This document shows, piece by piece, positions 1,236 through 22,933 of a stretch of 22,933 nt of DNA (position 1 is the stretch's first letter; each line of letters starts with the position of its first letter). Origin of the DNA: a virus (Duplodnaviria > Heunggongvirae > Uroviricota > Caudoviricetes). The notes beneath the pieces were generated by a model that saw nothing but the letters and a program-made list of their open reading frames with translations, did no database searches and was not told where the DNA came from. A program made the translations under genes and the position numbers. The DNA is taken from positions 1-22,933 of IMG/VR virus record IMGVR_UViG_2609459824_000003; one strand, given 5' to 3'.

Positions 1236-3173
1236 GTGACTCTTAAACGGGCCTGTTCCCTGCTGACGGTGAAATCCTTCAGTGAGGATGAACGGGTGAT
1301 CACCGGGATTGCGTCAACGCCTTCTCCGGATCGGGATGGTGACATCCTGGAGCCGGAGGGCGCGGAGTTTGGCAGTGCGATCCCGTTTCTCTGGCAGCAT
1401 GACCATTCCCGCCCGGTGGGGCAGTGTACGGTGCGCCGGGTCAGCGAAGGGCTGGAAATCACGGCAACACTGGTGAAGCCCGTACCGGATATGCCGTCGC
1501 AACTGGCTGCCCGGCTGGATGAGGTCTGGGCGGCCATTAAGACCGGGCTGGTCAGGGGGCTGTCCGTGGGCTTCCGTCCCCATGAATACACCTTTCTGGA
1601 CGGAGGCGGACTGCATTTTCTGCGCTGGGAACTGATGGAGGTGTCTGCCGTCACCGTGCCCGCGAATGCGGAATGCACCATCCGGACCATTAAATCTTAC
1701 GACCGCCCGTTTTCTGCCGCGTCCGGCAACCGGAAACCGGTGGTGAAAATCGCATCTTCTGCCGGCGCTGCGGCACAGTCAACAACCGTTTTTCATAAGG
1801 AAAAGACCATAATGAATATTGGCGAACAGATTAAAAGTTTTGAAAACAAGCGTGCAGCGCTGGCAGCCTCCCTTGAGGAGGTCATGACCAAAGCCGCAGA
1901 GGAAGGGCGCACGCTGGATGTGGAGGAGGAAGAGCATTACGACAACACCGCAGCGGAAATCCGTCAGGTGGATGCGCACCTGAAGCGCCTGCGTGAACTG
2001 GAAGCCGGTAAGGCCGCCACGGCGCAGCCGGTGAAACAGGCCGGTAACGGGAATGTGGCCGCGGTGGCTTCTGCGCCGGTGATCCGTGTGGAGCAGAAAC
2101 TGGATAAGGGGATTGGCTTCGCCCGCTTTGCCAAATCGCTGGCTGCGGCTAAAGGCGTCCGATCTGAAGCCCTGGAAGTGGCCCGTCGTCAGTATCCGGA
2201 TGACAGTCGTCTGCATCATGTCCTGAAATCGGCAGTGGGCGCGGGGACCACCACGGATCCGCAGTGGGCAGGCAGCCTGTCTGAATATCAGGAATACGCA
2301 CAGGACTTTATTGATTACCTGCGTCCGCAGACCATTATCGGGCGATTTGGTCAGGGCGGGATCCCTGCACTTCGTCAGGTGCCATTCAATATCCGTGTGC
2401 ACGCCCAGGTGTCCGGCGGTGCTGCCGGCTGGGTGGGTGAGGGTAAGGCAAAACCCCTGACGAAGTTTGATTTTGAATCCATCACCTTCAGTCATGCGAA
2501 GGTGTCGGCCATTGCGGTACTGACGGAAGAATTGATCCGTTTTTCCAGTCCGGCTGCTGATGCACTGGTCCGTAATGCGCTGGCGGAAGCGGTGGTGGCG
2601 CGTCTGGATACAGACTTTGTGGACCCGAAAAAAGCCGCAGTGGCAGATGTCTCCCCGGCGTCCATCACCCATGATGTGAAGGGCACGGCATCAACCGGTA
2701 ACCCGGATGCGGATGCAGAGGCTGCGTTTGGACAGTTTGTGGCAGCAAACCTGCAGCCCACCGGTGCGGTCTGGCTGATGTCCAGCACCAATGCCCTGGC
2801 ACTGTCCATGCGTAAAAATGCGCTGGGTCAGAAGGAATACCCGGACATGACCCTGCTGGGTGGCTCCTTCCAGGGGCTGCCGGTGATTGTCTCCCAGTAC
2901 GTGGGTGACCAGCTGGTGCTGGTGAATGCCCCGGATATTTATCTGGCGGATGACGGCGGCGTGGCAGTGGATATGTCCCGCGAGGCATCACTGGAAATGC
3001 AGTCTGAGCCGACCGGCGACAGTACCACGCCGTCCCCGGTGGAGCTGGTTTCCATGTTCCAGACAGGCAGCGTGGCCATCCGTGCGGAGCGCTGGATCAA
3101 CTGGCGTCGTCGCCGTACTGCGGCGGTGGCGGTGATCACCGGAGTGAACTACGGCAGTGCGTCCGGCGGCTGA
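1236..3173 (+). CDS. Fused prohead protease (HK97 gp4/S78-like) - scaffold (delta-domain-like coiled coil) - major capsid protein (HK97 fold)
   Basis: Continuous 645-codon ORF starting at GTG 1236, 5 nt after AGGAGG. The N-terminal ~165 aa carry prohead-protease motifs (GIASTPSPDRDGDIL...PFLWQHDHSRPVG...GLSVGF...EVSAVTVPAN). An in-frame ATG at 1812 preceded by AAGGAAAAG starts a coiled-coil segment (MNIGEQIKSFENKRAALAASLEEV...) followed by a capsid-like body. Confidence 0.8.
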   Translation: MTLKRACSLLTVKSFSEDERVITGIASTPSPDRDGDILEPEGAEFGSAIPFLWQHDHSRPVGQCTVRRVSEGLEITATLVKPVPDMPSQLAARLDEVWAAIKTGLVRGLSVGFRPHEYTFLDGGGLHFLRWELMEVSAVTVPANAECTIRTIKSYDRPFSAASGNRKPVVKIASSAGAAAQSTTVFHKEKTIMNIGEQIKSFENKRAALAASLEEVMTKAAEEGRTLDVEEEEHYDNTAAEIRQVDAHLKRLRELEAGKAATAQPVKQAGNGNVAAVASAPVIRVEQKLDKGIGFARFAKSLAAAKGVRSEALEVARRQYPDDSRLHHVLKSAVGAGTTTDPQWAGSLSEYQEYAQDFIDYLRPQTIIGRFGQGGIPALRQVPFNIRVHAQVSGGAAGWVGEGKAKPLTKFDFESITFSHAKVSAIAVLTEELIRFSSPAADALVRNALAEAVVARLDTDFVDPKKAAVADVSPASITHDVKGTASTGNPDADAEAAFGQFVAANLQPTGAVWLMSSTNALALSMRKNALGQKEYPDMTLLGGSFQGLPVIVSQYVGDQLVLVNAPDIYLADDGGVAVDMSREASLEMQSEPTGDSTTPSPVELVSMFQTGSVAIRAERWINWRRRRTAAVAVITGVNYGSASGG

Positions 3174-3439: not shown

Positions 3440-4749
3440 GAGAGGCGGGCTGGACCAGCCTGTTTCAGGCGGTGGCTGAGCCCTTTTCCGGCGCCTGGCA
3501 GCAGGGCGTGAAAGCCGATCCTGAAGCCGTCCTCTCCTTTCATGCGGTGTTTGCATGTATTTCGCTGATATCCCAGGATATCGCCAAAATGCGGCTGCGT
3601 CTTATGCAGACGGATGCGCATGGGATACGCAGGGAAACGCGCCGGGGGGATATTGCCCGCCTCTGTCGTCGTCCCAACGCCCAGCAGAACCGCATCCAGT
3701 TTTTTGAACTGTGGCTGAACGCCAAACTGCGTCATGGCAATACGGTGGTGCTGAAAATCCGTAATGCCCGGGGGCAGATCAAAGAACTGCGTATTCTGGA
3801 CTGGAGCCGGGTTGAACCTCTGGTGGCGGATGACGGCGAGGTGTTCTACCGCATCACGCCGGACCGGAACTGCGGGATCACGGAGGCGGTGACGGTGCCT
3901 GCCCGGGAAGTGATCCACGACCGGTTTAACTGTTTTTTTCATCCGCTTATAGGATTGCCGCCGGTGTATGCCGCCGGGCTGGCGGCCACGCAGGGGCATC
4001 ATATTCAGGAAAATTCGACGTCTTTTTTCAGAAATGGCGGCAGGCCGTCCGGGGTGATTGAGATCCCCGGCAGTATTACGGAAGAAAATGCGAAAAAACT
4101 GAAGAGCAACTGGGACAGCGGGTATACAGGCGAAAATGCGGGGAAAACGGCCATTCTGAGCAACGGGGCAAAATACAACCCCACGACGTTTTCACCTGTG
4201 GATGCGCAGACGGTGGAACAACTGAAGATGACCGCTGAAATTGTCTGTTCGGTGTTCCGTGTCCCGGCCTACAAGATTGGCGTGGGACAACCGCCTTCCA
4301 GTGACAACGTGGAGGCGCTGGAGCAGCAGTATTATTCCCAGTGCCTGCAGACGCTGATTGAGTCCATTGAACTGTTACTGGATGAGGCGCTGGAAACGGG
4401 GGAAAACGAGAGTACAGAATTTGATGTCACCACGCTGCTGAGAATGGACAGTGAGCGGCGCATGAAAACGCTGGGGGATGCGGTGAAAAATACGCTTCTC
4501 ACGCCCAATGAGGCCCGTAAACGGGAGAACCTGCCGCCCCTGGCCGGCGGTGATGCACTGTATCTTCAGCAGCAGAACTACAGTCTGGAGGCGCTGTCCC
4601 GTCGTGATGCCCGTGAGGATCCGTTCGCGTCTGCCGGGAAAACAGTTTCATCACAGCTGCCTGACGGCGCATCTGACGGTAATAAGGCAATCAGTGAAAC
4701 AGAGCATGATGCGGTGAAAGCGATGTTCAGGGGGATACTGAGAAAATGA
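3385..4749 (+). CDS. Phage portal protein (HK97-family)
   Basis: Translation has portal signatures: SFFRNGGRPSGVIEIPG, YTGENAGKTAILSNGAKY, TAEIVCSVFRVPAYKIGVG. The start is uncertain: first ATG at 3385, alternative GTG at 3436. The stop overlaps the next gene's start (ATGA at 4746-4749). Confidence 0.8.
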   Translation: MWNLLRRTRKNQKSGRDVREAGWTSLFQAVAEPFSGAWQQGVKADPEAVLSFHAVFACISLISQDIAKMRLRLMQTDAHGIRRETRRGDIARLCRRPNAQQNRIQFFELWLNAKLRHGNTVVLKIRNARGQIKELRILDWSRVEPLVADDGEVFYRITPDRNCGITEAVTVPAREVIHDRFNCFFHPLIGLPPVYAAGLAATQGHHIQENSTSFFRNGGRPSGVIEIPGSITEENAKKLKSNWDSGYTGENAGKTAILSNGAKYNPTTFSPVDAQTVEQLKMTAEIVCSVFRVPAYKIGVGQPPSSDNVEALEQQYYSQCLQTLIESIELLLDEALETGENESTEFDVTTLLRMDSERRMKTLGDAVKNTLLTPNEARKRENLPPLAGGDALYLQQQNYSLEALSRRDAREDPFASAGKTVSSQLPDGASDGNKAISETEHDAVKAMFRGILRK

Positions 4750-6455
4750 CGGAACGGGAACTGTCCATTATTCGTGCACTGGGAGAAGAATTCTCCACAG
4801 TGCTGGCGGATTTACAGCGCACATTTGAGGGGAAGATGGCCTCGCAGGCACAAGCGTTTGAAGAGAAACTGACTTCCCTGTCGGCGGTATTACAGAAGCA
4901 TGTGACGGTGGATGAGGTGCGTCCGGTTCTGCAGGCGATGGTGGATGACGCTGTGGGGGCCATTCCGGTACCGCGTGATGGTCGTGATTATGATCCGGAT
5001 GTACTGCAGCAGGCGGTGAATGATGCGGTCGCAAATATTCCGCAGCCGGCGGACGGTAAAAGTCTCACCCCGGATGATGTGCGTCCGATGCTTGAACAGA
5101 TGGTGAAGGAGGCTGTAAGCCATATCCCTGTTCCGCGCGACGGTCGTGACTATGATCCCGATGTTCTGCAGAAGGCGGTGAATGATGCGGTCGCAAATAT
5201 TCCGCAGCCGGGGGACGGTAAAAGTCTCACCCCGGATGATGTGCGTCCGATGCTTGAACAGATGGTGAAGGAGGCTGTAAGCCATATCCCTGTTCCGCGT
5301 GATGGTCGTGACTACGATCCGGAAGTACTGCAGAAGGCGGTGAATGATGCGGTCGCAAATATTCCGCAGCCGGGGGACGGTAAAAGTCTCACCCCGGATG
5401 ATGTGCGTCCGATGCTTGAACAGATGGTGAAGGAGGCTGTAAGCCATATCCCTGTTCCGCGCGACGGTCGTGACTATGATCCCGATGTTCTGCAGAAGGC
5501 GGTGAATGATGCGGTCGCAAATATTCCGCAGCCGGCGGACGGTAAAAGTCTCACCCCGGATGATGTGCGTCCGATGCTTGAACAGATGGTGAAGGAGGCT
5601 GTAAGCCATATCCCTGTTCCGCGCGACGGTCGTGACTATGATCCCGATGTTCTGCAGAAGGCGGTGAATGATGCGGTCGCAAATATTCCGCAGCCGGCGG
5701 ACGGTAAAAGTCTCACCCCGGATGATGTGCGTCCGATGCTTGAACAGATGGTGAAGGAGGCTGTAAGCCATATCCCTGTTCCGCGCGACGGTCGTGACTA
5801 TGATCCCGATGTTCTGCAGAAGGCGGTGAATGATGCGGTCGCAAATATTCCGCAGCCGGCAGACGGTAAAAGTCTCACCCCGGATGATGTGCGTCCGATG
5901 CTTGAACAGATGGTGAAGGAGGCGGTAAGCCATATTCATGTTCCGCGTGATGGTCGTGACTACGATCCGGATGTTCTGCAGAAGGCGGTTCTGGATGCGG
6001 TGAGTGCCCTGCCGGCTCCGCAGGACGGGCGTGATGCCACGGCTCTGGAAATACTCCCCGCCATTGACGATCAAAAATCCTTTCCCCGGGGCACGTATGC
6101 CACACACCAGGGCGGACTCTGGCGGGCGTATGAAAAAACGCACGGGATGCGGGGATGGGAATGCCTGGTTGACGGGGTGGCGGATATTGACGTCAGCATG
6201 ACGGGTGAGCGGTTGTTCTCTGTGGTGGTCCGGCAGAGCAGTGGCCAGCGTACGGAAAAAACATTTTCCCTGCCGGTGATGCTCTACCGCGGTGTGTTCA
6301 GAGCCGGTGAAACCTACCACCCCGGCGATACGGTGACGTGGGGGGGCTCGCTGTGGCACTGCAACAGTATGACCGAAGATAAACCCGGAGAAGCTCATTC
6401 ATCAGCCTGGACCCTGGCGGCAAAACGTGGGCGGGATGCAGGAGGCGGAAAATGA
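4746..6455 (+). CDS. Structural-module protein of unknown function with seven tandem 54-aa repeats
   Basis: 569-aa ORF translationally coupled to portal (ATGA overlap). It has a coiled-coil-like N-terminus, seven copies of a 54-aa unit (VRPMLEQMVKEAVSHIPVPRDGRDYDPDVLQKAVNDAVANIPQPADGKSLTPDD) and a ~140-aa Trp/Gly-rich C-terminal domain. Confidence 0.8.
   Translation: MTERELSIIRALGEEFSTVLADLQRTFEGKMASQAQAFEEKLTSLSAVLQKHVTVDEVRPVLQAMVDDAVGAIPVPRDGRDYDPDVLQQAVNDAVANIPQPADGKSLTPDDVRPMLEQMVKEAVSHIPVPRDGRDYDPDVLQKAVNDAVANIPQPGDGKSLTPDDVRPMLEQMVKEAVSHIPVPRDGRDYDPEVLQKAVNDAVANIPQPGDGKSLTPDDVRPMLEQMVKEAVSHIPVPRDGRDYDPDVLQKAVNDAVANIPQPADGKSLTPDDVRPMLEQMVKEAVSHIPVPRDGRDYDPDVLQKAVNDAVANIPQPADGKSLTPDDVRPMLEQMVKEAVSHIPVPRDGRDYDPDVLQKAVNDAVANIPQPADGKSLTPDDVRPMLEQMVKEAVSHIHVPRDGRDYDPDVLQKAVLDAVSALPAPQDGRDATALEILPAIDDQKSFPRGTYATHQGGLWRAYEKTHGMRGWECLVDGVADIDVSMTGERLFSVVVRQSSGQRTEKTFSLPVMLYRGVFRAGETYHPGDTVTWGGSLWHCNSMTEDKPGEAHSSAWTLAAKRGRDAGGGK
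4917..6050 (+). repeat. Tandem array of 7 x 162-bp direct repeats, in frame within the CDS
   Basis: The motif GTGCGTCC recurs at 4917, 5079, 5241, 5403, 5565, 5727 and 5889, exactly 162 bp apart. The six central copies are nearly identical at the nucleotide level; the first and last are diverged. Each unit is an internal duplication of a ~27-aa sub-repeat (IP-x-P-x-DG...PD-x-V...AV). Confidence 0.9.
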
Positions 6456-15393: not shown

Positions 15394-18300
15394 ATGGGAA
15401 AAGGTGGCGGTAAGGCACACACGCCTCGTGAGGCGAAGGATAATCTCAAATCCACGCAGATGATGAGCGTGATTGATGCGATTGGTGAGGGACCGATAGA
15501 AGGTCCGGTGAAGGGACTGCAGAGTATCCTGGTGAACAAAACCCCGCTGACGGACACGGACGGTAATCCCGTGATACACGGTGTGACGGCGGTCTGGCGC
15601 GCCGGGGAGCAGGAGCAGACACCACCGGAAGGCTTTGAGTCCTCCGGTGCTGAAACCGGACTGGGCGTGGAAGTGACGAAGGCAAAACCGGTGACGCGCA
15701 CCATTACGTCCGCGAACATTGACCGCCTGCGGGTTACCTTCGGGGTGCAGTCACTGGTGCAGACCACGTCAAAGGGCGACCGTAATCCTTCCTCTGTCCG
15801 GATTCTGATTCAGTTACAGCGTAATGGCCGCTGGGTGACGGAAAAGGATGTCACCATTAACGGCAAGACCACCTCGCAGTTCCTGGCCTCGGTGATTCTG
15901 GATAATCTGCCTCCCCGGCCCTTTAACATCCGGATGGTCAGGGAGACGGCGGACAGCACCACGGACCAGCTGCAGAATAAGACGCTGTGGTCGTCATACA
16001 CCGAAATCATCGATGTGAAACAGTGCTACCCGAACACGGCCATTGTGGGGCTGCAGGTGGATGCGGAGCAGTTCGGCGGCCAGCAGATGACGGTGAACTA
16101 CCATATCCGCGGTCGCATCATCCAGGTGCCGTCAAACTATGACCCGGAAAAACGCACGTACAGTGGTATCTGGGACGGCAGCCTGAAACCGGCATACAGC
16201 AACAACCCGGCCTGGTGTCTGTGGGACATGCTGACTCACCCGCGCTACGGCATGGGAAAACGTCTGGGGGCGGCGGATGTGGACAAGTGGGCGCTGTATG
16301 CCATCGGGCAGTACTGCGACCAGACGGTCCCGGATGGTTTCGGGGGGACCGAGCCGCGGATGACCTTTAATGCGTACCTGGCACAACAGCGTAAGGTGTG
16401 GGACGTTCTCAGTGATTTCTGCTCTGCGATGCGCTGTATGCCGGTATGGAACGGCCAGACGCTGACGTTCGTTCAGGACCGTCCGTCGGATGTGGTGTGG
16501 CCGTACACCAACAGCGATGTGGTGGTGGATGATAACGGCGTGGGTTTCCGCTACAGCTTCAGTGCCCTGAAGGACCGGCACACGGCAGTGGAGGTGAATT
16601 ACACCGACCCGCAGAACGGCTGGCAGACCTCCACGGAACTGGTGGAAGACCCGGAAGCCATACTGCGCTACGGACGCAACCTGCTGAAGATGGACGCGTT
16701 CGGCTGTACCAGCCGCGGTCAGGCCCACCGTGCCGGGCTGTGGGTGATAAAGACCGAACTGCTGGAAACGCAGACGGTGGATTTCACGCTTGGGTCACAG
16801 GGGCTGCGTCACACACCCGGTGACATCATTGAAATCTGTGATAACGACTATGCCGGGACCATGACCGGCGGACGTGTCCTGTCCATCGATGCCGCCAGCC
16901 GTACCCTGACGCTGGACCGGGAGGTGACACTGCCGGAGACCGGCACGGCCACTGTTAATCTGATTAACGGCAGCGGTAAGCCGGCGAGCGTGGCCATCAC
17001 CGCACACCCCGCGCCTGACCGGATACAGGTCAGCACCCTGCCGGATGGTGTGGAGACATACGGGGTGTGGGGACTCTCCCTGCCGTCACTGCGTCGTCGC
17101 CTGTTCCGCTGTGTCTCCATCCGGGAAAACACGGACGGCACGTTCGCCATCACGGCGGTGCAGCACGTACCTGAAAAAGAAGCCATCGTGGATAACGGGG
17201 CCCGCTTTGAGCCGCAGTCAGGCACCCTGAACAGCGTTATCCCACCGGCAGTGCAGCACCTGACGGTGGAGGTGAGCGCAGCTGACGGCCAGTATCTGGC
17301 GCAGGCGAAATGGGACACGCCGCGGGTGGTGAAGGGTGTGCGCTTCAGTCTGCGCCTGACCAGTGGTAAGGGAACGGATGCCAGACTGGTGACCACCGCC
17401 ATCACCGCAGACACGGAGCACCGTTTCAGCGGCCTGCCGCTCGGGGAATACACCCTGACGGTGCGGGCGATAAACAGCTATGGCCAGCAGGGTGAACCTG
17501 CCACCACCACCTTCCGGATTACCGCACCGGCAGCACCGTCGCGGATTGAGCTGACGCCGGGCTATTTTCAGATAACCGCAACGCCACATCTTGCCGTTTA
17601 TGACCCGACGGTACAGTTTGAGTTCTGGTTCTCGGAAAAGCGGATTGCGGATATCAGGCAGGTTGAAACCGCAGCCCGCTATCTTGGCTCGGCGCTGTAC
17701 TGGATAGCTGCCAGTATCAATATCAAACCGGGCCATGATTATTATTTTTATATCCGCAGTGTGAATACTGTTGGCAAATCGGCATTCGTGGAGGCTGTCG
17801 GTCGGGCGAGCGATGATGCGGAAGGTTACCTGGATTTTTTCAAAGGAGAAATCGGGAAAACACATCTGGCCCAGGAGCTGTGGACGCAGATTGATAACGG
17901 TCAGCTTGCGCCGGACCTGGCTGAAATCAGGACGTCCATTACGAATGTCAGCAATGAAATCACGCAGACCGTCAATAAAAAACTGGAAAATCAGAGTGCG
18001 GCAATCCAGCAGATACAGAAAGTTCAGGTTGATACAAATAATAACCTGAACAGCATGTGGGCCGTGAAACTGCAGCAGATGCAGGACGGACGCCTTTATA
18101 TTGCGGGTATCGGTGCCGGTATTGAGAATACGCCAGCAGGAATGCAGAGTCAGGTGCTGCTGGCGGCAGACAGGATTGCGATGATTAATCCTGCGAATGG
18201 CAACACAAAGCCGATGTTTGTTGGTCAGGGCGATCAGATATTTATGAATGAAGTGTTCCTGAAATATCTGACGGCTCCCACCATTACCAGCGGCGGTAAT

Positions 18301-18867
18301 CCTCCGGCATTTTCCCTGACACCGGACGGGCGGCTGACGGCGAAAAATGCCGATATCAGCGGTAACGTGAATGCGAACTCCGGGACGCTCAACAACGTCA
18401 CGATTAACGAGAACTGTCGGGTTCTGGGAAAATTGTCCGCGAACCAGATTGAAGGCGATCTCGTTAAAACAGTGGGCAAAGCTTTCCCCCGGGACTCCCG
18501 TGCACCGGAGCGGTGGCCATCAGGAACCATTACCGTCAGGGTTTATGACGATCAGCCGTTTGACCGGCAGATTGTTATTCCGGCGGTGGCATTCAGCGGC
18601 GCTAAACATGAGAAAGAGCATACTGATATTTACTCCTCATGCCGTCTGATAGTGCGGAAAAACGGTGCTGAAATTTATAACCGTACCGCGCTGGATAATA
18701 CGCTGATTTACAGTGGTGTTATTGATATGCCTGCCGGTCACGGTCACATGACACTGGAGTTTTCGGTGTCAGCATGGCTGGTAAATAACTGGTATCCCAC
18801 AGCAAGTATCAGCGATTTGCTGGTTGTGGTGATGAAGAAAGCCACTGCAGGCATCACGATTAGCTGA
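15394..18867 (+). CDS. J: Tail tip host-specificity protein J (central tail fibre)
   Basis: 1157-aa ORF with RBS AGGGGAAGG. The N-terminus [39 protein letters not shown] and long internal stretches ([29 protein letters not shown]; [34 protein letters not shown]; [38 protein letters not shown]) match lambda gpJ. Confidence 0.95.
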
Positions 18868-18934: not shown

Positions 18935-19534
18935 ATGCGTAAATTATGTGCTGTTATTTTGTCCGCAGTAGTCTGGCAGGTCGCCGCTGCTACGCCAGCG
19001 AGTGCAGCAGAACATCAGTCCACGCTGAGCGCGGGGTATCTCCATGCCTCGACGAACGTTCCCGGTAGTGATGATCTGAACGGGATTAACGTGAAATACC
19101 GTTATGAGTTTACGGACGCGCTGGGGCTGATTACGTCCTTCAGTTATGCCAATGCTGAGGATGAGCAAAAAACGCGCTACAGCGATACCCGCTGGCATGA
19201 AGATTCCGTGCGTAACCGCTGGTTCAGCGTGATGGCGGGGCCGTCTGTACGCGTGAATGAATGGTTCAGCGCGTATGCGATGGCGGGTGTGGCTTACAGC
19301 CGTGTGTCGACTTTCTCCGGGGATTATCTCCGCGTAACTGACAACAAGGGGAAAACGCACGATGTGCTGACCGGAAGTGATGACGGTCGCCACAGCAACA
19401 CGTCTCTGGCGTGGGGGGCTGGCGTGCAGTTTAACCCGACCGAATCCGTGACCATTGACCTTGCTTATGAAGGTTCCGGTAGTGGCGACTGGCGAACGGA
19501 TGCATTTATTGTTGGTATCGGATACCGTTTCTGA
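18935..19534 (+). CDS. lom: Lom outer-membrane beta-barrel protein (Ail/Lom/PagC/OmpX family)
   Basis: Signal peptide MRKLCAVILSAVVWQVAAATPASA. Family motifs GINVKYRYEFTD, YAMAGVAYSR, and the C-terminal LAYEGSGSGDWRTDAFIVGIGYRF ending in Phe. Same position between J and stf as lom in lambda. Confidence 0.9.
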   Translation: MRKLCAVILSAVVWQVAAATPASAAEHQSTLSAGYLHASTNVPGSDDLNGINVKYRYEFTDALGLITSFSYANAEDEQKTRYSDTRWHEDSVRNRWFSVMAGPSVRVNEWFSAYAMAGVAYSRVSTFSGDYLRVTDNKGKTHDVLTGSDDGRHSNTSLAWGAGVQFNPTESVTIDLAYEGSGSGDWRTDAFIVGIGYRF

Positions 19535-19640
19535 CAACAGACGCCGATTTATCTTCTGTAAATATTGTTATGATACGCAGGTTCATCCACCTTATGGGGT
19601 GAACTGCGTTTGAGGAAACGTAAAGTTACACTGTCCTGAA

Positions 19641-19672
19641 GCCCGTGGCGTCACTGCTGCGGGCTTTTTTTA
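19641..19672 (+). terminator. Intrinsic terminator downstream of lom
   Basis: GCCCG (19641-19645), loop, CGGGC (19660-19664), followed by TTTTTTT (19665-19671). Confidence 0.55.
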
Positions 19673-19685
19673 TTGGTGGAAAAGT

Positions 19686-22600
19686 ATGACAGTAAAAATT
19701 TCTGGCGTGCTTAAAGATGGCACAGGAAAACCAGTACAGAACTGCACCATTGTGCTGAAGGCCAGACGAACCAGCAGCACGGTGGTGGTGAACACGGTGG
19801 CCTCTGAAAATCCGGATGAAGCCGGACGTTACAGCATGGATGTTGAGCATGGTCAGTACAGCGTCACCCTGCTGGTTGAAGGTTTTCCGCCTTCACATGC
19901 CGGGACCATTACCGTCTATGAAGGTTCCAGACCAGGTACGCTGAATGATTTTCTCGGTGCCATGACGGAGGATGATGTCCGACCGGAGGCACTGCGCCGC
20001 TTTGAGCAGATGGTGGAAGAGGTGTCACGTAACGCCTCCGCGGTTGCACAGAATACGGCAGCCGCGAAAAAATCAGCCAGCGATGCCAGTGCATCAGCCA
20101 GCGAGGCGGCAACTCATGCAACCGATGCTGCAGCCTCAGCACGTGCCGCCAGCACGTCAGCCGGACAGGCCGCGTCGTCGGCTCAGTCAGCGTCTTCCAG
20201 CGCAGGAACGGCATCGACAAAGGCCCGTGAAGCAGCAAAAAGTGCTGCTGCTGCAGAGTCATCAAAAAGCGCGGCAGCTACCAGCGCCAGTGCCGCGAAA
20301 ACGTCAGAAACGAATGCCGCAGCATCACAAAAATCGGCAGCCACTTCTGCATCCACAGCGACCACGAAGGCGTCAGAAGCTGCCACCTCGGCACGGGGTG
20401 CGGCGGCCTCAAAAGAGGCAGCGAAATCTTCAGAAACGAATGCATCATCAAGTGCCAGTAGTGCAGCTTCCTCGGCAACGGCGGCAGGAAATTCCGCGAA
20501 GGCGGCAAAAACGTCCGAGACGAACGCTAAGTCTTCTGAAACAGCAGCGGGACAGAGCGCCTCAGCTGCGGCAGGTTCAAAAACAGCGGCTGCATTATCT
20601 GCCAGTGCCGCGTCAACAAGTGCCGGGCAGGCCTCAGCCAGTGCCACCGCCGCCGGAAAATCGGCAGAAAGCGCCGCATCATCCGCTTCAACAGCCACAA
20701 CGAAGGCTGGCAAAGCCACTGAGCAAGCCACTGCAGCAGCGAGGTCTGCTTCTGCAGCAAAAACCTCTGAAACAAATGCAAAGACTTCAGCAGACAATGC
20801 TGCTTCCTCTAAGGCGGCAGCCGCATCGTCAGCCAGTTCAGCGGCGTCATCGGCATCATCTGCGTCTGCTTCAAAAGATGAGGCGACCAGACAAGCGTCA
20901 GCAGCGAAAGGTAGTGCCACGACAGCAACAACGAAAGCATCAGAGGCGGCAGGCAGTGCGACGGCTGCATCTCAGAGCAAAGTTGCTGCTGAATCCGCGG
21001 CAACGCGCGCCGAGACAGCAGCAAAACGGGCAGAGGATATTGCATCCGCCGTGGCGCTGGAGGATGCGAGCACGACGAAAAAGGGGATAGTACAGCTCAG
21101 CAGTGCAACAAACAGCACCAGTGAAAAGCTGGCGGCAACGCCAAAGGCAGTTAAAACTGTTAAAGATAGTTCAGTTCAAAAAACTGGCGACACAATGGGA
21201 GGGCAGTTAAAAATCAGCACGATAAATGCTCTTCGAATATTCAACCAAGCCTTTGGCCTTATTTTTAGGCGTTCCGAAGATCATCTTCATCTTATTCCGA
21301 CTAATGAAGGGGAGGGGGAAAATGGAGACATCGGTTCATTAAGACCATTCTCTATAAACTTAAGATCAGGGTTGGTGTCCATCGGTAATGGACTAAAAGT
21401 TGGTGGTAGTGTTACTGGTAATTTGACCGGAAACGCAGATACTGCGACCAAGATCAAGACAGCACGTAAGATTGGGGGCGTGGCATTTGATGGATCGGCA
21501 GATATCAACTTGCCTGGAGTCAACGCTACCGGTAATCAAAACACTACAGGTAATGCTGCGACCGCCACGAAACTTCAGGCAGCCAGAACGATTAACGGTG
21601 TGTCATTTGATGGTAGTGCAAATATCACATTGACCCCTTCAAATATTGGGGCATTGGCATTAACTGGAGGGACTCTTTCAGGTGGTTTAACTGCTGCTGG
21701 TGAGGTTATTTCAAGGTCAGCAAATGGTCTGCGTATTGCCTATGGCAACTATGGATTCTTTATCCGAAATGATGGATCAAACACATATTTTATGTTGACA
21801 GATTCGGGTAACAGTCTTGGTACGCACAATAGCTTAAGGCCGTTTATAATTAGTAACCATACTGGCAATGTTACAATTGCAACTAAATTAAACGCGAGTG
21901 GTGGTATCACTGGATCTTTATCGGGTAATGCAAGCACAGCAACCAAATTGCAAACTGCAAGGACAATTAACGGCGTAAAATTTGACGGCTCGGCAAATAT
22001 TGAAGCGTTTCCGCCAGGTGTTCCGCTGCCGTGGCCATCAGATACACCACCTGCAGGTTATGCAATCATGCAGGGGCAGACGTTTGATAAGGCAGCATAT
22101 CCGAAACTGGCTATTGCCTATCCTTCAGGTGTTATTCCAGATATGCGCGGCTGGACAATCAAGGGCAACCCCGCCAGTGGCCGGGCCGTATTGTCTCAGG
22201 AACAGGACGGCATTAAATCGCACACCCACAGCGCCAGCGCATCCAGTACGGATTTGGGGACGAAAACCACATCGTCGTTTGATTACGGCACTAAATCCAC
22301 GAATAACACCGGGGCGCATACGCACAGTCTGAGTGGCTCTACGGGGTCTGCCGGTGTTCATACTCATGGTAATGGTATTCGTTGGCCAGGAGGCGGCGGT
22401 TCTGCGTTAGCATTTTATGATGGCGGTGGGTTCACTTATGTCCAGAATTCACAGTATCAAGTAAGCCCGGAGACTTCTTCCTATAGATCGTATTATCAAC
22501 GTATTCAGACACAGTCAGCAGGTGCTCATACCCACTCGCTGTCTGGTACTGCAGCAAGTTCTGGCGCACATGCACATACTGTAGGTATTGGTGCGCATAC

Positions 22601-22712
22601 GCACTCCGTTGCGATTGGTTCACATGGACACACCATCACCGTTAACGCTGCGGGTAACGCGGAAAACACCGTCAAAAACATCGCATTTAACTATATTGTG
22701 AGGCTTGCATAA
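19686..22712 (+). CDS. stf: Side tail fibre protein Stf (mosaic; lambda-like N- and C-termini)
   Basis: The N-terminus [28 protein letters not shown]...[32 protein letters not shown] and the C-terminus ...[32 protein letters not shown]...[25 protein letters not shown] match lambda Stf. The centre holds an Ala/Ser/Thr-rich low-complexity region and three fibre repeats (GNAxTATKLxxARTINGVxFDGSANI). Confidence 0.9.
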
Positions 22713-22933
22713 TGGCATTCAGAATGAGTGAACAAGCACGGACCATAAAAATTTATAATCTGCTGGCCGGAACTAATGAATTTATTGGTGAAGGTGACGC
22801 ATATATTCCGCCTCATACAGGTCTGCCAGCAAACAGTACCGATATTGCACCACCAGATATTCCTGCTGGCTTTGTGGCTGTTTTCAACAGTGATGAGGCA
22901 TCGTGGCATCTCGTTGAAGACCATCGGGGTAAA
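22712..22933 (+). CDS. tfa: Tail fibre assembly chaperone Tfa (N-terminal 74 codons; continues past the window)
   Basis: ATG overlaps the stf stop (TAATG at 22710-22714). Translation [74 protein letters not shown] matches the lambda Tfa N-terminus. No stop occurs before the window ends. Confidence 0.85.

Follow-up and report, generated by a model that had tools for sequence, protein, structure and literature searches.

The window, by which we mean the whole 22,933-nt stretch of phage DNA that was analyzed, holds a complete-looking head and tail module with the gene order J, lom, stf, and tfa (Table 1). The stf open reading frame is genuine, and its product is 100% identical to WP_000216487.1, a RefSeq protein encoded by a prophage at ompW; this identical prophage carries the same J-lom-stf-tfa annotation. 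The start of tfa overlaps the stf stop codon by 1 nt (TAATG). Although tfa is cut by the window end, the complete gene in the identical prophage is 585 nt long and intact. Farther downstream in that prophage are pseudogene remnants of a second tfa and of a DUF4376 protein. An NCBIfam search returned no family for the 1,008-aa Stf, a literature search found no mention of accession WP_000216487.1, and a scan for promoters and terminators within stf gave none above chance.

Table 1. Features of the stf locus (positions in the window; aa and gene nt are counted from the start of stf)
Feature	Position	Strand	Basis
J	15394-18867		
lom	18935-19534		
stf, side tail fiber gene (1,008 aa; stop TAA at 22710-22712)	19686-22712	+	ORF call
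gpStfN N-terminal collar domain, aa 1-94	19686-19967	+	PDB 9e7m, lambda tail fiber protein residues 1-94, E 3.6e-47
Shadow ORF in another frame, 372 aa	19972-21090	+	GCN-rich coiled-coil coding sequence
Proximal heptad coiled-coil shaft, Ala/Ser/Thr-rich, ~aa 102-460	19989-21065	+	Periodicity; colinearity with lambda Stf
Shadow ORF, 245 aa	20183-20920	-	ORF call
Extra coiled coil relative to lambda, 315 nt = 105 aa = 15 heptads	20594-20898 (approximate)	+	blastn offsets; domain bounds
Phage_fiber_2 junction motif, aa 462-498 (25-residue sequence), left recombination boundary	21069-21179	+	PF03406, E 9.6e-18
Central low-GC cassette, gene nt 1471-2343, aa 491-781	21156-22028	+	DNA alignment to relatives
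Cassette unit A, beta-domain and repeat copy 1, aa 501-612	21186-21521	+	55% identity to T4 gp37 residues 570-638, E 2.8e-20
Extra repeat copy 2, aa 613-655	21522-21650	+	Regex match; profile score
Cassette unit B, gp34-type beta-domain and repeat copy 3, aa 656-775	21651-22010	+	PF21446 Gp34_trimer
Receptor-binding tip, collar (PF07484, aa 778-825) and needle, aa 776-1008	22011-22709	+	PDB 2xgf, T4 gp37 tip, E 6.4e-79
Variable head insert between HxH 3 and HxH 4, ~aa 893-947	22362-22526	+	DNA homology interrupted
tfa 5' part, tail fiber assembly chaperone	22712-22933	+	PHROG 105 tail fiber assembly, E 1e-35

At least 80% of the stf gene is present in 423 of 5,426 complete Escherichia coli genomes, an allele frequency of about 8%, and ATCC 25922 is among the carriers. 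The gene is 99 to 100% identical in 381 complete E. coli genome records. An assembly chimera was rejected, as the identical gene occurs in hundreds of independent complete genomes.

The first 134 residues of Stf match PF08400 (E = 5.6e-70) and include the collar domain, whose role is the docking of the fiber on the tail tip (PMC12617516). Residues 126 to 470 consist of 38% Ala, 24% Ser, and 11% Thr. A preliminary description of this DNA had taken the Ala/Ser/Thr-rich segment for a low-complexity spacer with a recurring AAKTSETNA motif. The motif was found (three exact copies and one AAKSSETNA), but the segment has an exact heptad periodicity: consecutive K[TS]SETNA motifs, of which there are four, lie 42, 28, and 84 residues apart, each a multiple of 7, and Ala and hydrophobic residues recur with periods of 3.5 and 7.0 residues (power of 9.6 to 10.3, against a 99th percentile of 2.1 to 2.2 for shuffled sequences). 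Tandem Repeats Finder and a direct-repeat search of the coiled-coil region gave no genuine tandem array at the DNA level; they detected only degenerate copies of 33 nt at the KTSETNA motif. The periodicity therefore lies at the heptad and protein level and not in the DNA.

In lambda Stf, residues 102 to 393 form the proximal coiled coil (PMC12617516). At the DNA level, gene nt 1 to 908 are 84.7% identical to lambda, the similarity resumes over nt 1214 to 1469, and the protein aligns with lambda Stf over aa 1 to 404 with 69.6% identity. The extra coiled coil listed in Table 1 follows from the blastn offsets (gene nt 1 to 908 fall on positions 751 to 1658 of the lambda locus and nt 1214 to 1469 fall on positions 1649 to 1904) and from the domain bounds, which are 125 to 490 in the window Stf versus 125 to 385 in lambda. 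The additional 315 nt are shared by mEp332, PhiR26_1, and 204576. Judged by these alignments, the Ala-rich segment is lambda Stf's own proximal coiled coil, colinear but 15 heptads longer, rather than foreign material. As the segment belongs to that coiled coil, the lambda-like 5' part extends over about 490 aa; the view of the gene as a mosaic with lambda-like ends was upheld, but not the limit of ~125 aa originally set for the first of them (with ~230 aa for the last). The extra heptads would lengthen the proximal shaft by approximately 15 nm.

Homology to five lambdoid stf genes (lambda, mEp332, PhiR26_1, 204576, and Rac-type stfR) ends at gene nt 1470, at the junction motif, and resumes at nt 2344. 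Between these breakpoints, obtained by the alignment to lambda stf and prophage relatives proposed earlier, the cassette has no DNA similarity to any of the five; they hold other cassettes of ~0.9 to 1.3 kb at the same place, differing in content and length. The edges first assigned to the low-GC block, at 21160 and 22010, agree with the independent edges from DNA alignment. The cassette is complete in 423 genomes, nearly all with at least 99% identity. We did not find a donor with near-identical DNA. Among phages, the cassette is closest, with 65 to 71% protein identity, to the variable parts of P1/P7 S and the fibers of SSU5-like phage-plasmids (CMS-2020a). These fibers have other N termini and tips and are much longer (1,576 aa in CMS-2020a), and the DNA identity over the cassette is only ~70 to 72%. 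The CMS-2020a fiber is 88.5% identical to the window Stf at the amino acid level over the coiled coil and 56 to 73% identical over related units.

The cassette encodes two related units, A and B (42% identity; E = 8e-23). Unit B scores above the gathering threshold of PF21446 (94.5 bits; cutoff, 27), whereas unit A alone falls below it (17.2 bits). The beta-domain of unit B (aa 656 to 742) is 51% identical to T4 gp34 residues 1032 to 1112 (PDB 4UXE and 5NXF) and closely matches Mu S residues 268 to 350 (PDB 5YVQ); 5YVQ and 4UXE were also its matches in the PDB. Outside the tip, unit A is the sole gp37-like part of the window Stf. Unlike in T4 gp34 and Mu S, the beta-domain is duplicated here and lies within a siphovirus side fiber, and in the T4 proteins no 37-aa repeat adjoins it. 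An AlphaFold2 model of the cassette monomer, derived from a 35-sequence alignment, reached a pLDDT of only 65 and a pTM of 0.34, and a Foldseek search with it returned, with low TM-scores, only Mu S and T4 gp34, which we take as consistency only.

As described beforehand, the low-GC block contains three copies of a 26-aa pattern, GNAxTATK[LI]xxARxIxGVxFDGSA[ND]I, here located at aa 582, 622, and 747; a profile built from them detects each copy with an i-E of ~1e-25. The repeat had been called typical of T4 gp37 or P2 gpH, but the profile gave no significant match to T4 gp34, gp35, gp36, and gp37 or to P2 H. It occurs instead in P1/P7 S, SSU5, Goslar, CMS-2020a, the P2-like phage 613R2, 204576 Stf, and marine metagenome proteins. 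Neither does the repeat belong to Phage_fiber_2, for which residues ~490 to 780 had been put forward: none of the three copies matches PF03406, and its sole match is the junction motif upstream of the cassette. It is only this motif that P2 gpH shares with the window Stf (two copies, 73 to 77% identity over 35 to 41 aa), as P2 H lacks the TATKL repeat, the HxH motifs, and a gp37-type tip. In the PDB, the 37-aa repeat has no homolog of solved structure; when the repeat region was searched by sequence, the only match was a weak one, to the phage L Dec C terminus (E = 0.18), which hints at a trimeric beta stalk but does not count as evidence.

Downstream of the cassette is a T4 gp37-type tip followed by tfa, as anticipated, with seven HxH motifs (aa 846, 878, 892, 948, 962, 971, and 980) and not the six listed before; PF03335 is also among the Pfam matches of the tip. 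Stf residues 776 to 1008 are 63.5% identical to T4 gp37 residues 814 to 1026, with the collar, all seven HxH motifs, and an 11-residue C-terminal sequence in common. The differences from T4 gp37 are the sequence and length of the head insert and the chaperone, which is a lambda-type Tfa and not gp38; Tfa presumably folds the Stf tip. Seven iron ions are bound at the HxH motifs of T4 gp37, according to a secondary citation in PMC11705849. As the histidines are conserved, the published structure from T4 predicts metal (iron) at the HxH sites of the Stf trimer.

Compared with Ur-lambda Stf (774 aa; orf-401 plus orf-314 in lambda PaPa), the window Stf shares the J-lom/tfa locus, the collar domain (PDB 9e7m), the Ala-rich proximal coiled coil, the PF03406 junction, and the gp37-type collar and needle with HxH motifs, including the same last 46 aa. 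It differs in the 15 added heptads and in the 291-aa beta-structured cassette. Residues 394 to 525 of lambda Stf comprise a hinge and a six-chain distal coiled coil (PMC12617516); nothing similar to this segment was found in the window Stf, which has the cassette there. The segment does not define the family, because Rac-type and PhiR26-type alleles vary there too. A further difference lies in the head insert, which is presumed to make the receptor contact; here, over gene nt ~2652 to 2890, the DNA loses its homology to lambda, mEp332, and PhiR26_1. Since the insert is unrelated to that of Ur-lambda, the receptor of the window Stf may be other than OmpC.

The shaft, cassette, and tip assort independently of each other, as the preliminary description had proposed for the shaft and receptor-proximal domains. 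Across the complete E. coli genomes, some part of stf is found in 5,177, the head insert in 719, and the cassette in 423. Rac-type StfR and the Stf of phage 204576 (1,137 aa) have the same N-terminal domain, a coiled coil of equal length (87 to 89% nt identity), the same tip, head insert included (94 to 95% nt identity), and the same two breakpoints (gene nt 1470 and 2344), but their cassette is ~1,260 nt of unrelated DNA with one gp34-type unit, one TATKL repeat, and other domains. Conversely, in strain 203740 the same cassette and tip (1 mismatch in 1,720 nt) follow a 5' part that is 83 to 95% identical, and J is 87% identical. In the P2-like myophage 613R2 (vB_EcoM-613R2), the last repeat, collar, and needle are attached to a P2-type N terminus. 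Unrelated phages are well known to exchange fiber genes (PMC3945230), and lambda-P2 chimeras of Stf made by engineering are functional (bioRxiv 10.1101/2022.09.30.509847).

We therefore consider it about 88% probable that the locus is an intact lambda-family stf allele in a lambda-like E. coli prophage, assembled as a mosaic of known fiber modules. In the fiber geometry that we infer, Stf would be a trimer whose collar domain docks it on the tail tip. Outward from the virion, a long, unbroken heptad coiled coil with an Ala core would form the proximal shaft and would be followed by the conserved Phage_fiber_2 junction. The beta-structured cassette would then take the place of the lambda hinge and distal coiled coil and would consist of two copies of a unit that joins a gp37/gp34-type beta-domain to a 37-aa repeat, separated by one extra repeat. 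The distal end would be the T4 gp37-type collar and needle, with seven HxH metal sites and the variable head insert. The gene was probably built by recombination at short conserved linkers, namely, the PF03406 motif on the left and either the repeat or the PWPSD collar start on the right, with further recombination inside the coiled-coil coding region.

The base composition bears on the origin of the cassette. GC content is 0.59 in the Ala-rich part and drops to 0.43 at 21201 to 21995 (0.434 in the whole cassette), and this shift had been regarded as the mark of an acquired cassette. The discrete cassette absent from relatives was borne out, but raw GC overstates the size of the shift: GC2 drops from 0.78 to 0.51 and GC1 drops from 0.54 to 0.45, so that about two-thirds of the fall comes from codon positions 1 and 2, i.e., from amino acid composition. 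GC3 is 0.34 in the cassette, 0.445 and 0.454 in the flanks, 0.42 to 0.50 in the alternative lambdoid stf cassettes, and 0.57 to 0.70 in the other genes checked, of which the lowest 100-codon block in the window has 0.49. The contrast between the cassette and its flanks is modest (~0.10; z of ~2.4 by our own rough estimate). The cassette most likely came from a pool of lower-GC fibers, e.g., P1/P7-like, SSU5-like phage-plasmid, or T-even-like fibers, and it would have been transferred from that pool into the lambdoid gene.

Alternatively, the cassette could be ancestral in this fiber lineage, with the lambda-, Rac-, and PhiR26-type middles as the replacements and the low GC resulting from selection or amino acid usage. 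The distal two-thirds of stf already has a GC3 under that of the rest of the prophage, and the distal part does so in every allele examined; related units adjoin the same coiled coil in a phage-plasmid fiber, and the search for a near-identical donor came back empty. Yet the cassette is the rarest of the modules counted, has a lower GC3 than any other cassette in the comparison, and is almost without internal diversity, which suggests recent spread. We regard an ancestral cassette as improbable.

We give slightly less credence to the idea that stf is a nonfunctional remnant in a defective prophage, its mosaic structure being a scar of recombination that plays no part in adsorption. Defects are common among the lambdoid prophages of E. 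coli, and the tfa and DUF4376 remnants downstream in the identical prophage fit this picture; the prophage may indeed be defective elsewhere than in stf. However, the 1,008 codons are unbroken and at least 99% conserved in the 381 records, the heptad register is kept across the 15-heptad difference in length, no HxH motif of the seven has been lost, tfa is intact and translationally coupled, and the head and tail module in the window looks complete.

The least plausible explanation, that the composition shift is an artifact of Ala/Ser/Thr codons raising the upstream GC and says nothing of origin, accounts for the GC1 and GC2 drops but is largely refuted by the GC3 analysis, as GC3 is largely free of amino acid choice and is lower in the cassette than in both flanks or any block of the other window genes, and the boundary is one of complete loss of DNA homology to relatives.

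Viewed as a mosaic of known modules, the gene is a clear but ordinary case of phage tail-fiber gene shuffling, with little weight for basic biology. Reports of tail-fiber mosaicism among lambdoid, P2, P1/Mu, and T-even phages go back to about 1990, and the phenomenon is already exploited to retarget lambda particles. The replacement of the lambda hinge and distal coiled coil by beta-domains is an example that, together with its fusion points, could guide the design of chimeric fibers. The natural map of permissive Stf fusion points places them after ATPKAVK, at the repeat or the collar start (PWPSD), on either side of the head insert, and at coiled-coil steps that preserve the heptad.

A more general role for the 37-aa TATKL...FDGSANI repeat is conceivable but doubtful, namely, that of a universal adapter, both a short trimeric beta linker and a conserved DNA patch, that joins gp34/gp37-type beta-domains into the fibers of siphoviruses, myoviruses, phage-plasmids, and even marine phages. 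If so, the duplicated beta-domains could be a rigid distal rod replacing the lambda hinge or a second lateral binding site, and either adsorption geometry or host range would change.

The coiled-coil coding region also gives rise to the long shadow open reading frames in Table 1, which had been noticed at the outset. The lambda record contains an equivalent on the minus strand, annotated as orf206b.

DNA homology between stf, the lambda-type side tail fibre gene, and five other lambdoid stf genes (those of lambda, mEp332, PhiR26_1, and phage 204576 and the Rac-type stfR) ends at gene nt 1470 and starts again at nt 2344. The left edge lies just past ...LAATPKAVK and the right edge at ...PWPSD, which places a discrete central block (the cassette) almost exactly where the preliminary description had located it. 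The central idea of that description, that the fibre is a mosaic into which a low-GC cassette was swapped, was right, but its views on the Ala-rich spacer, on how far the lambda likeness extends, on the source of the repeats, and on how much the composition shifts are corrected below. Between the same edges, lambda carries about 130 aa (hinge plus distal coiled coil), PhiR26_1 about 270 aa, and phage 204576 and Rac-type stfR about 420 aa, all unrelated to the cassette.

The stf product is 100% identical to RefSeq WP_000216487.1 ("prophage tail fiber N-terminal domain-containing protein"), whose copy lies in the CFSAN061761 prophage, inserted at ompW near trp. In a search of 5426 complete E. 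coli genomes, stf was present at at least 99% identity in 381 records, ruling out an assembly artefact, and at least 80% of the gene was held by 423 genomes, ATCC 25922 among them. Its presence in hundreds of complete genomes marks it as a real, widespread gene. We found no paper mentioning the accession WP_000216487.1. The allele is uncharacterised, the kind of protein is already known, and each module comes from a known, structurally characterised family, the short repeat excepted.

Positions of features in the window (nt)
Feature	Position	Strand	Remark
Protease-capsid fusion ORF	1236-3173	+	645 aa
569-aa protein gene	4746-6455	+	directly after portal gene; tandem array at 4971-5989
Shadow ORF over 569-aa protein gene	4890-6398	minus	502 aa
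Terminator-like hairpin	19638-19677		lom-stf gap
stf	19686-22712	+	1008 aa; directly after Lom
Shadow ORF in stf	19972-21090	+	
Shadow ORF in stf	20183-20920	minus	
Cassette	21156-22028		aa 491-781 of stf

The left edge of the cassette is formed by the Pfam Phage_fiber_2 motif (PF03406; aa 462 to 498; E = 9.6e-18), which P2 H contains twice. This family, suggested earlier for the central repeats, marks the junction and not the three repeats. The repeats themselves are present in the three copies described, GNAxTATK[LI]xxARxIxGVxFDGSA[ND]I at aa 582, 622, and 747, each with an i-E value of about 1e-25 when scored with a profile built from all three. The cassette is an internal duplication in which unit A (aa 501 to 612) and unit B (aa 656 to 775) are 42% identical (E = 8e-23), each consisting of a beta-domain followed by one TATKL...FDGSANI repeat, with a spare repeat between the units. 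Unit B is a Gp34_trimer domain (PF21446; 94.5 bits) and matches solved structures of Mu S (5YVQ) and T4 gp34 (4UXE and 5NXF); unit A shares 55% identity with residues 570 to 638 of T4 gp37. Mu S and gp34 were also the sole Foldseek matches of a monomer AlphaFold2 model of the cassette, which had modest confidence (pLDDT 65).

The repeat had been thought typical of T4 gp37 or P2 gpH, but it was not found in T4 gp34-37 or P2 H. It occurs in fibres of P1/P7 S, SSU5, Goslar, and CMS-2020a, as well as in a P2-like myophage fibre, 204576 Stf, and marine metagenome proteins. Among the latter, the TARA/GOS proteins P0046, P0082, and P0116 share ∼70% identity with the repeat region over 24 to 26% of the cassette, and the repeat also has a match in the fibre of a Prochlorococcus phage, so this short sequence is conserved far beyond enterobacterial phages. 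No solved homologue of the repeat was found.

The reported abrupt GC shift exists (0.59 to 0.43 at about 21100 to 21200 in the window, back up near 22000), but raw GC overstates its size. At the cassette boundary, ordinary codons take over from those for Ala, Ser, and Thr, which lowers GC2 from 0.78 to 0.51 and GC1 from 0.54 to 0.45; GC3 changes less, from 0.445 to 0.34. The latter value is the lowest in the gene, with GC3 at 0.454 in the tip (the C-terminal receptor-binding part) and 0.42 to 0.50 in the alternative cassettes of other stf alleles. For the other window genes checked, whole-gene GC3 is 0.57 to 0.70, and the lowest 100-codon block in other window genes has 0.49; T4 gp34 and gp37 have 0.21 and 0.27, respectively. 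The composition shift is real but modest, and import from a lower-GC fibre pool is compatible with it. A near-identical donor of the cassette was not found, the best phage relatives being 65 to 71% identical at the protein level.

Upstream of the cassette, aa 126 to 470 are indeed rich in Ala (38%), Ser (24%), and Thr (11%), the AAKTSETNA motif recurs (three exact copies and one AAKSSETNA), and long shadow ORFs run on both strands; the lambda record annotates the counterpart of the minus-strand one as orf206b. Lambda likeness at this end is not limited to the first ∼125 aa, as the DNA is 84.7% identical to lambda over gene nt 1 to 908, similarity returns at nt 1214 to 1469, and residues 1 to 404 of the protein can be aligned with lambda orf-401 (69.6%). 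Nor is the segment a low-complexity spacer, since it has heptad periodicity and is colinear with the lambda proximal coiled coil. When Ala or hydrophobic positions in aa 102 to 460 were subjected to Fourier analysis, the spectrum peaked sharply at exactly 3.5 and 7.0 residues (power, 9.6 to 10.3; 99th percentile of shuffles, 2.1 to 2.2), which identifies this stretch as a heptad coiled coil that runs without a break and has an alanine core. In the Ur-lambda fibre model, collar domain 1-91, linker 92-101, proximal coiled coil 102-393, hinge 394-422, and distal coiled coil 423-525 precede a gp37-like receptor-binding domain (PMC12617516), and the Ala-rich segment corresponds to the proximal coiled coil of that model. 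The stf coiled coil is 315 nt longer than that of lambda, i.e., 105 aa or exactly 15 heptads, so the heptad register is kept. Successive K[TS]SETNA motifs, of which there are four, lie 42, 28, and 84 residues apart, each a multiple of seven. The long version is also found in mEp332, PhiR26_1, phage 204576, and Rac-type stfR.

The tip does carry HxH motifs, although there are seven rather than the six named previously. The T4 gp37 tip structure 2XGF matches stf residues 743 to 1008 (E = 6.4e-79), gp37 residues 814 to 1026 are 63.5% identical to stf residues 776 to 1008, and the seven HxH motifs of gp37 align with all seven of stf. In the crystal structure, the gp37 motifs coordinate seven iron ions, as cited in PMC11705849. 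The tip, too, is a mosaic, since it loses its DNA homology to lambda, mEp332, and PhiR26_1 at about gene nt 2652 to 2890 (roughly aa 893 to 947), between HxH 3 and HxH 4. Bartual and colleagues (2010) reportedly identified the equivalent gp37 segment as the receptor-binding head; with a different segment at this position, the fibre need not have lambda's OmpC specificity.

As proposed earlier, the modules assort independently of one another. Of the 5426 genomes, 5177 match some part of stf, 423 have the cassette, and 719 have the head insert (between HxH 3 and HxH 4), leaving roughly 300 genomes with this head type and without this cassette. Phage 204576 and Rac-type stfR (adjoining pinR) combine a tip of 94 to 95% nt identity with another cassette at identical breakpoints. 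Strain 203740 has the window's cassette and tip (one mismatch in 1720 nt), with only 83 to 95% identity over the 5′ 880 nt and 87% in J; the mosaic patch inside its coiled-coil region shows recombination there as well. In the fibre of the P2-like myophage vB_EcoM-613R2, a P2-type N terminus and two PF03406 repeats lead into the last TATKL repeat, collar, and needle in a form almost identical to that in the window, although its head insert differs. In the 1576-aa fibre of phage-plasmid CMS-2020a, the coiled coil is 88.5% identical (aa) and the cassette units are related at 56 to 73% (aa).

The identities, boundaries, and independent assortment of the modules are shown by these data; their exchange most likely proceeds by homologous or homeologous recombination, both at short conserved linkers and inside the repetitive DNA that encodes the coiled coil. 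Tail-fibre mosaicism is a textbook phenomenon, and in experiments lambda picks up stf-tfa sequence from Rac and Qin, in line with such exchange. Also in line with it, fibre-gene exchange among unrelated phages has long been recognised (PMC3945230). Engineered lambda-P2 Stf chimeras already use fibre mosaicism (bioRxiv 10.1101/2022.09.30.509847). We infer that the fibre would act like Ur-lambda Stf, with trimers docked via the collar domain, a projecting coiled-coil rod, and a gp37-type tip that, folded by Tfa, is predicted to bind a surface receptor reversibly. Compared with lambda, the proximal rod would gain about 15 nm in length, and a beta-structured distal segment would take the place of the hinge and the six-chain coiled coil.

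The window represents the late-gene arm of a lambda-like E. coli prophage, in the order partial terminase large subunit, protease-capsid fusion, portal, tape measure, L, I, J, Lom, stf, and the start of tfa; the stf stop and tfa start codons share one base (TAATG). The fusion joins a prohead serine protease domain (PF04586) to an HK97-type major capsid domain (PF05065). Unlike the lambda-like tail genes, the head module is not of the lambda type, so the prophage backbone is mosaic too. In the 569-aa post-portal protein, a 162-nt/54-aa unit (…PRDGRDYDPDVLQKAVNDAVANIPQPADGKSLTPDDVRPMLEQMVKEAVSHIPV…) is repeated 6.3 times in tandem with little change (96% matches), and a unique C-terminal domain of ∼130 aa comes after the array; a credible Pfam family was not found for this protein. 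The gap between lom and stf contains a strong terminator-like hairpin (13-pair stem with 7 G-C pairs, then a T-run) directly upstream of the stf ribosome-binding site, and stf and tfa would therefore need read-through or antitermination of the late transcript.

Beyond the window end, in the identical prophage of CFSAN061761 (locus L002, 9666-11374), tfa is followed by a minus-strand SAM-dependent methyltransferase gene, pseudogene remnants of a second tfa and DUF4376 protein, and a truncated ompW. The remnants look like what is left, where prophage and chromosome join, of an alternative fibre end that was once present. In the Rac-type prophage of strain Z1322HEC0005 (locus L012, 5046-5636), tfaR and the invertase gene pinR come after an stfR that has the same tip but another cassette, whereas the position after tfa in the window's prophage is taken by the methyltransferase gene, without an invertase.
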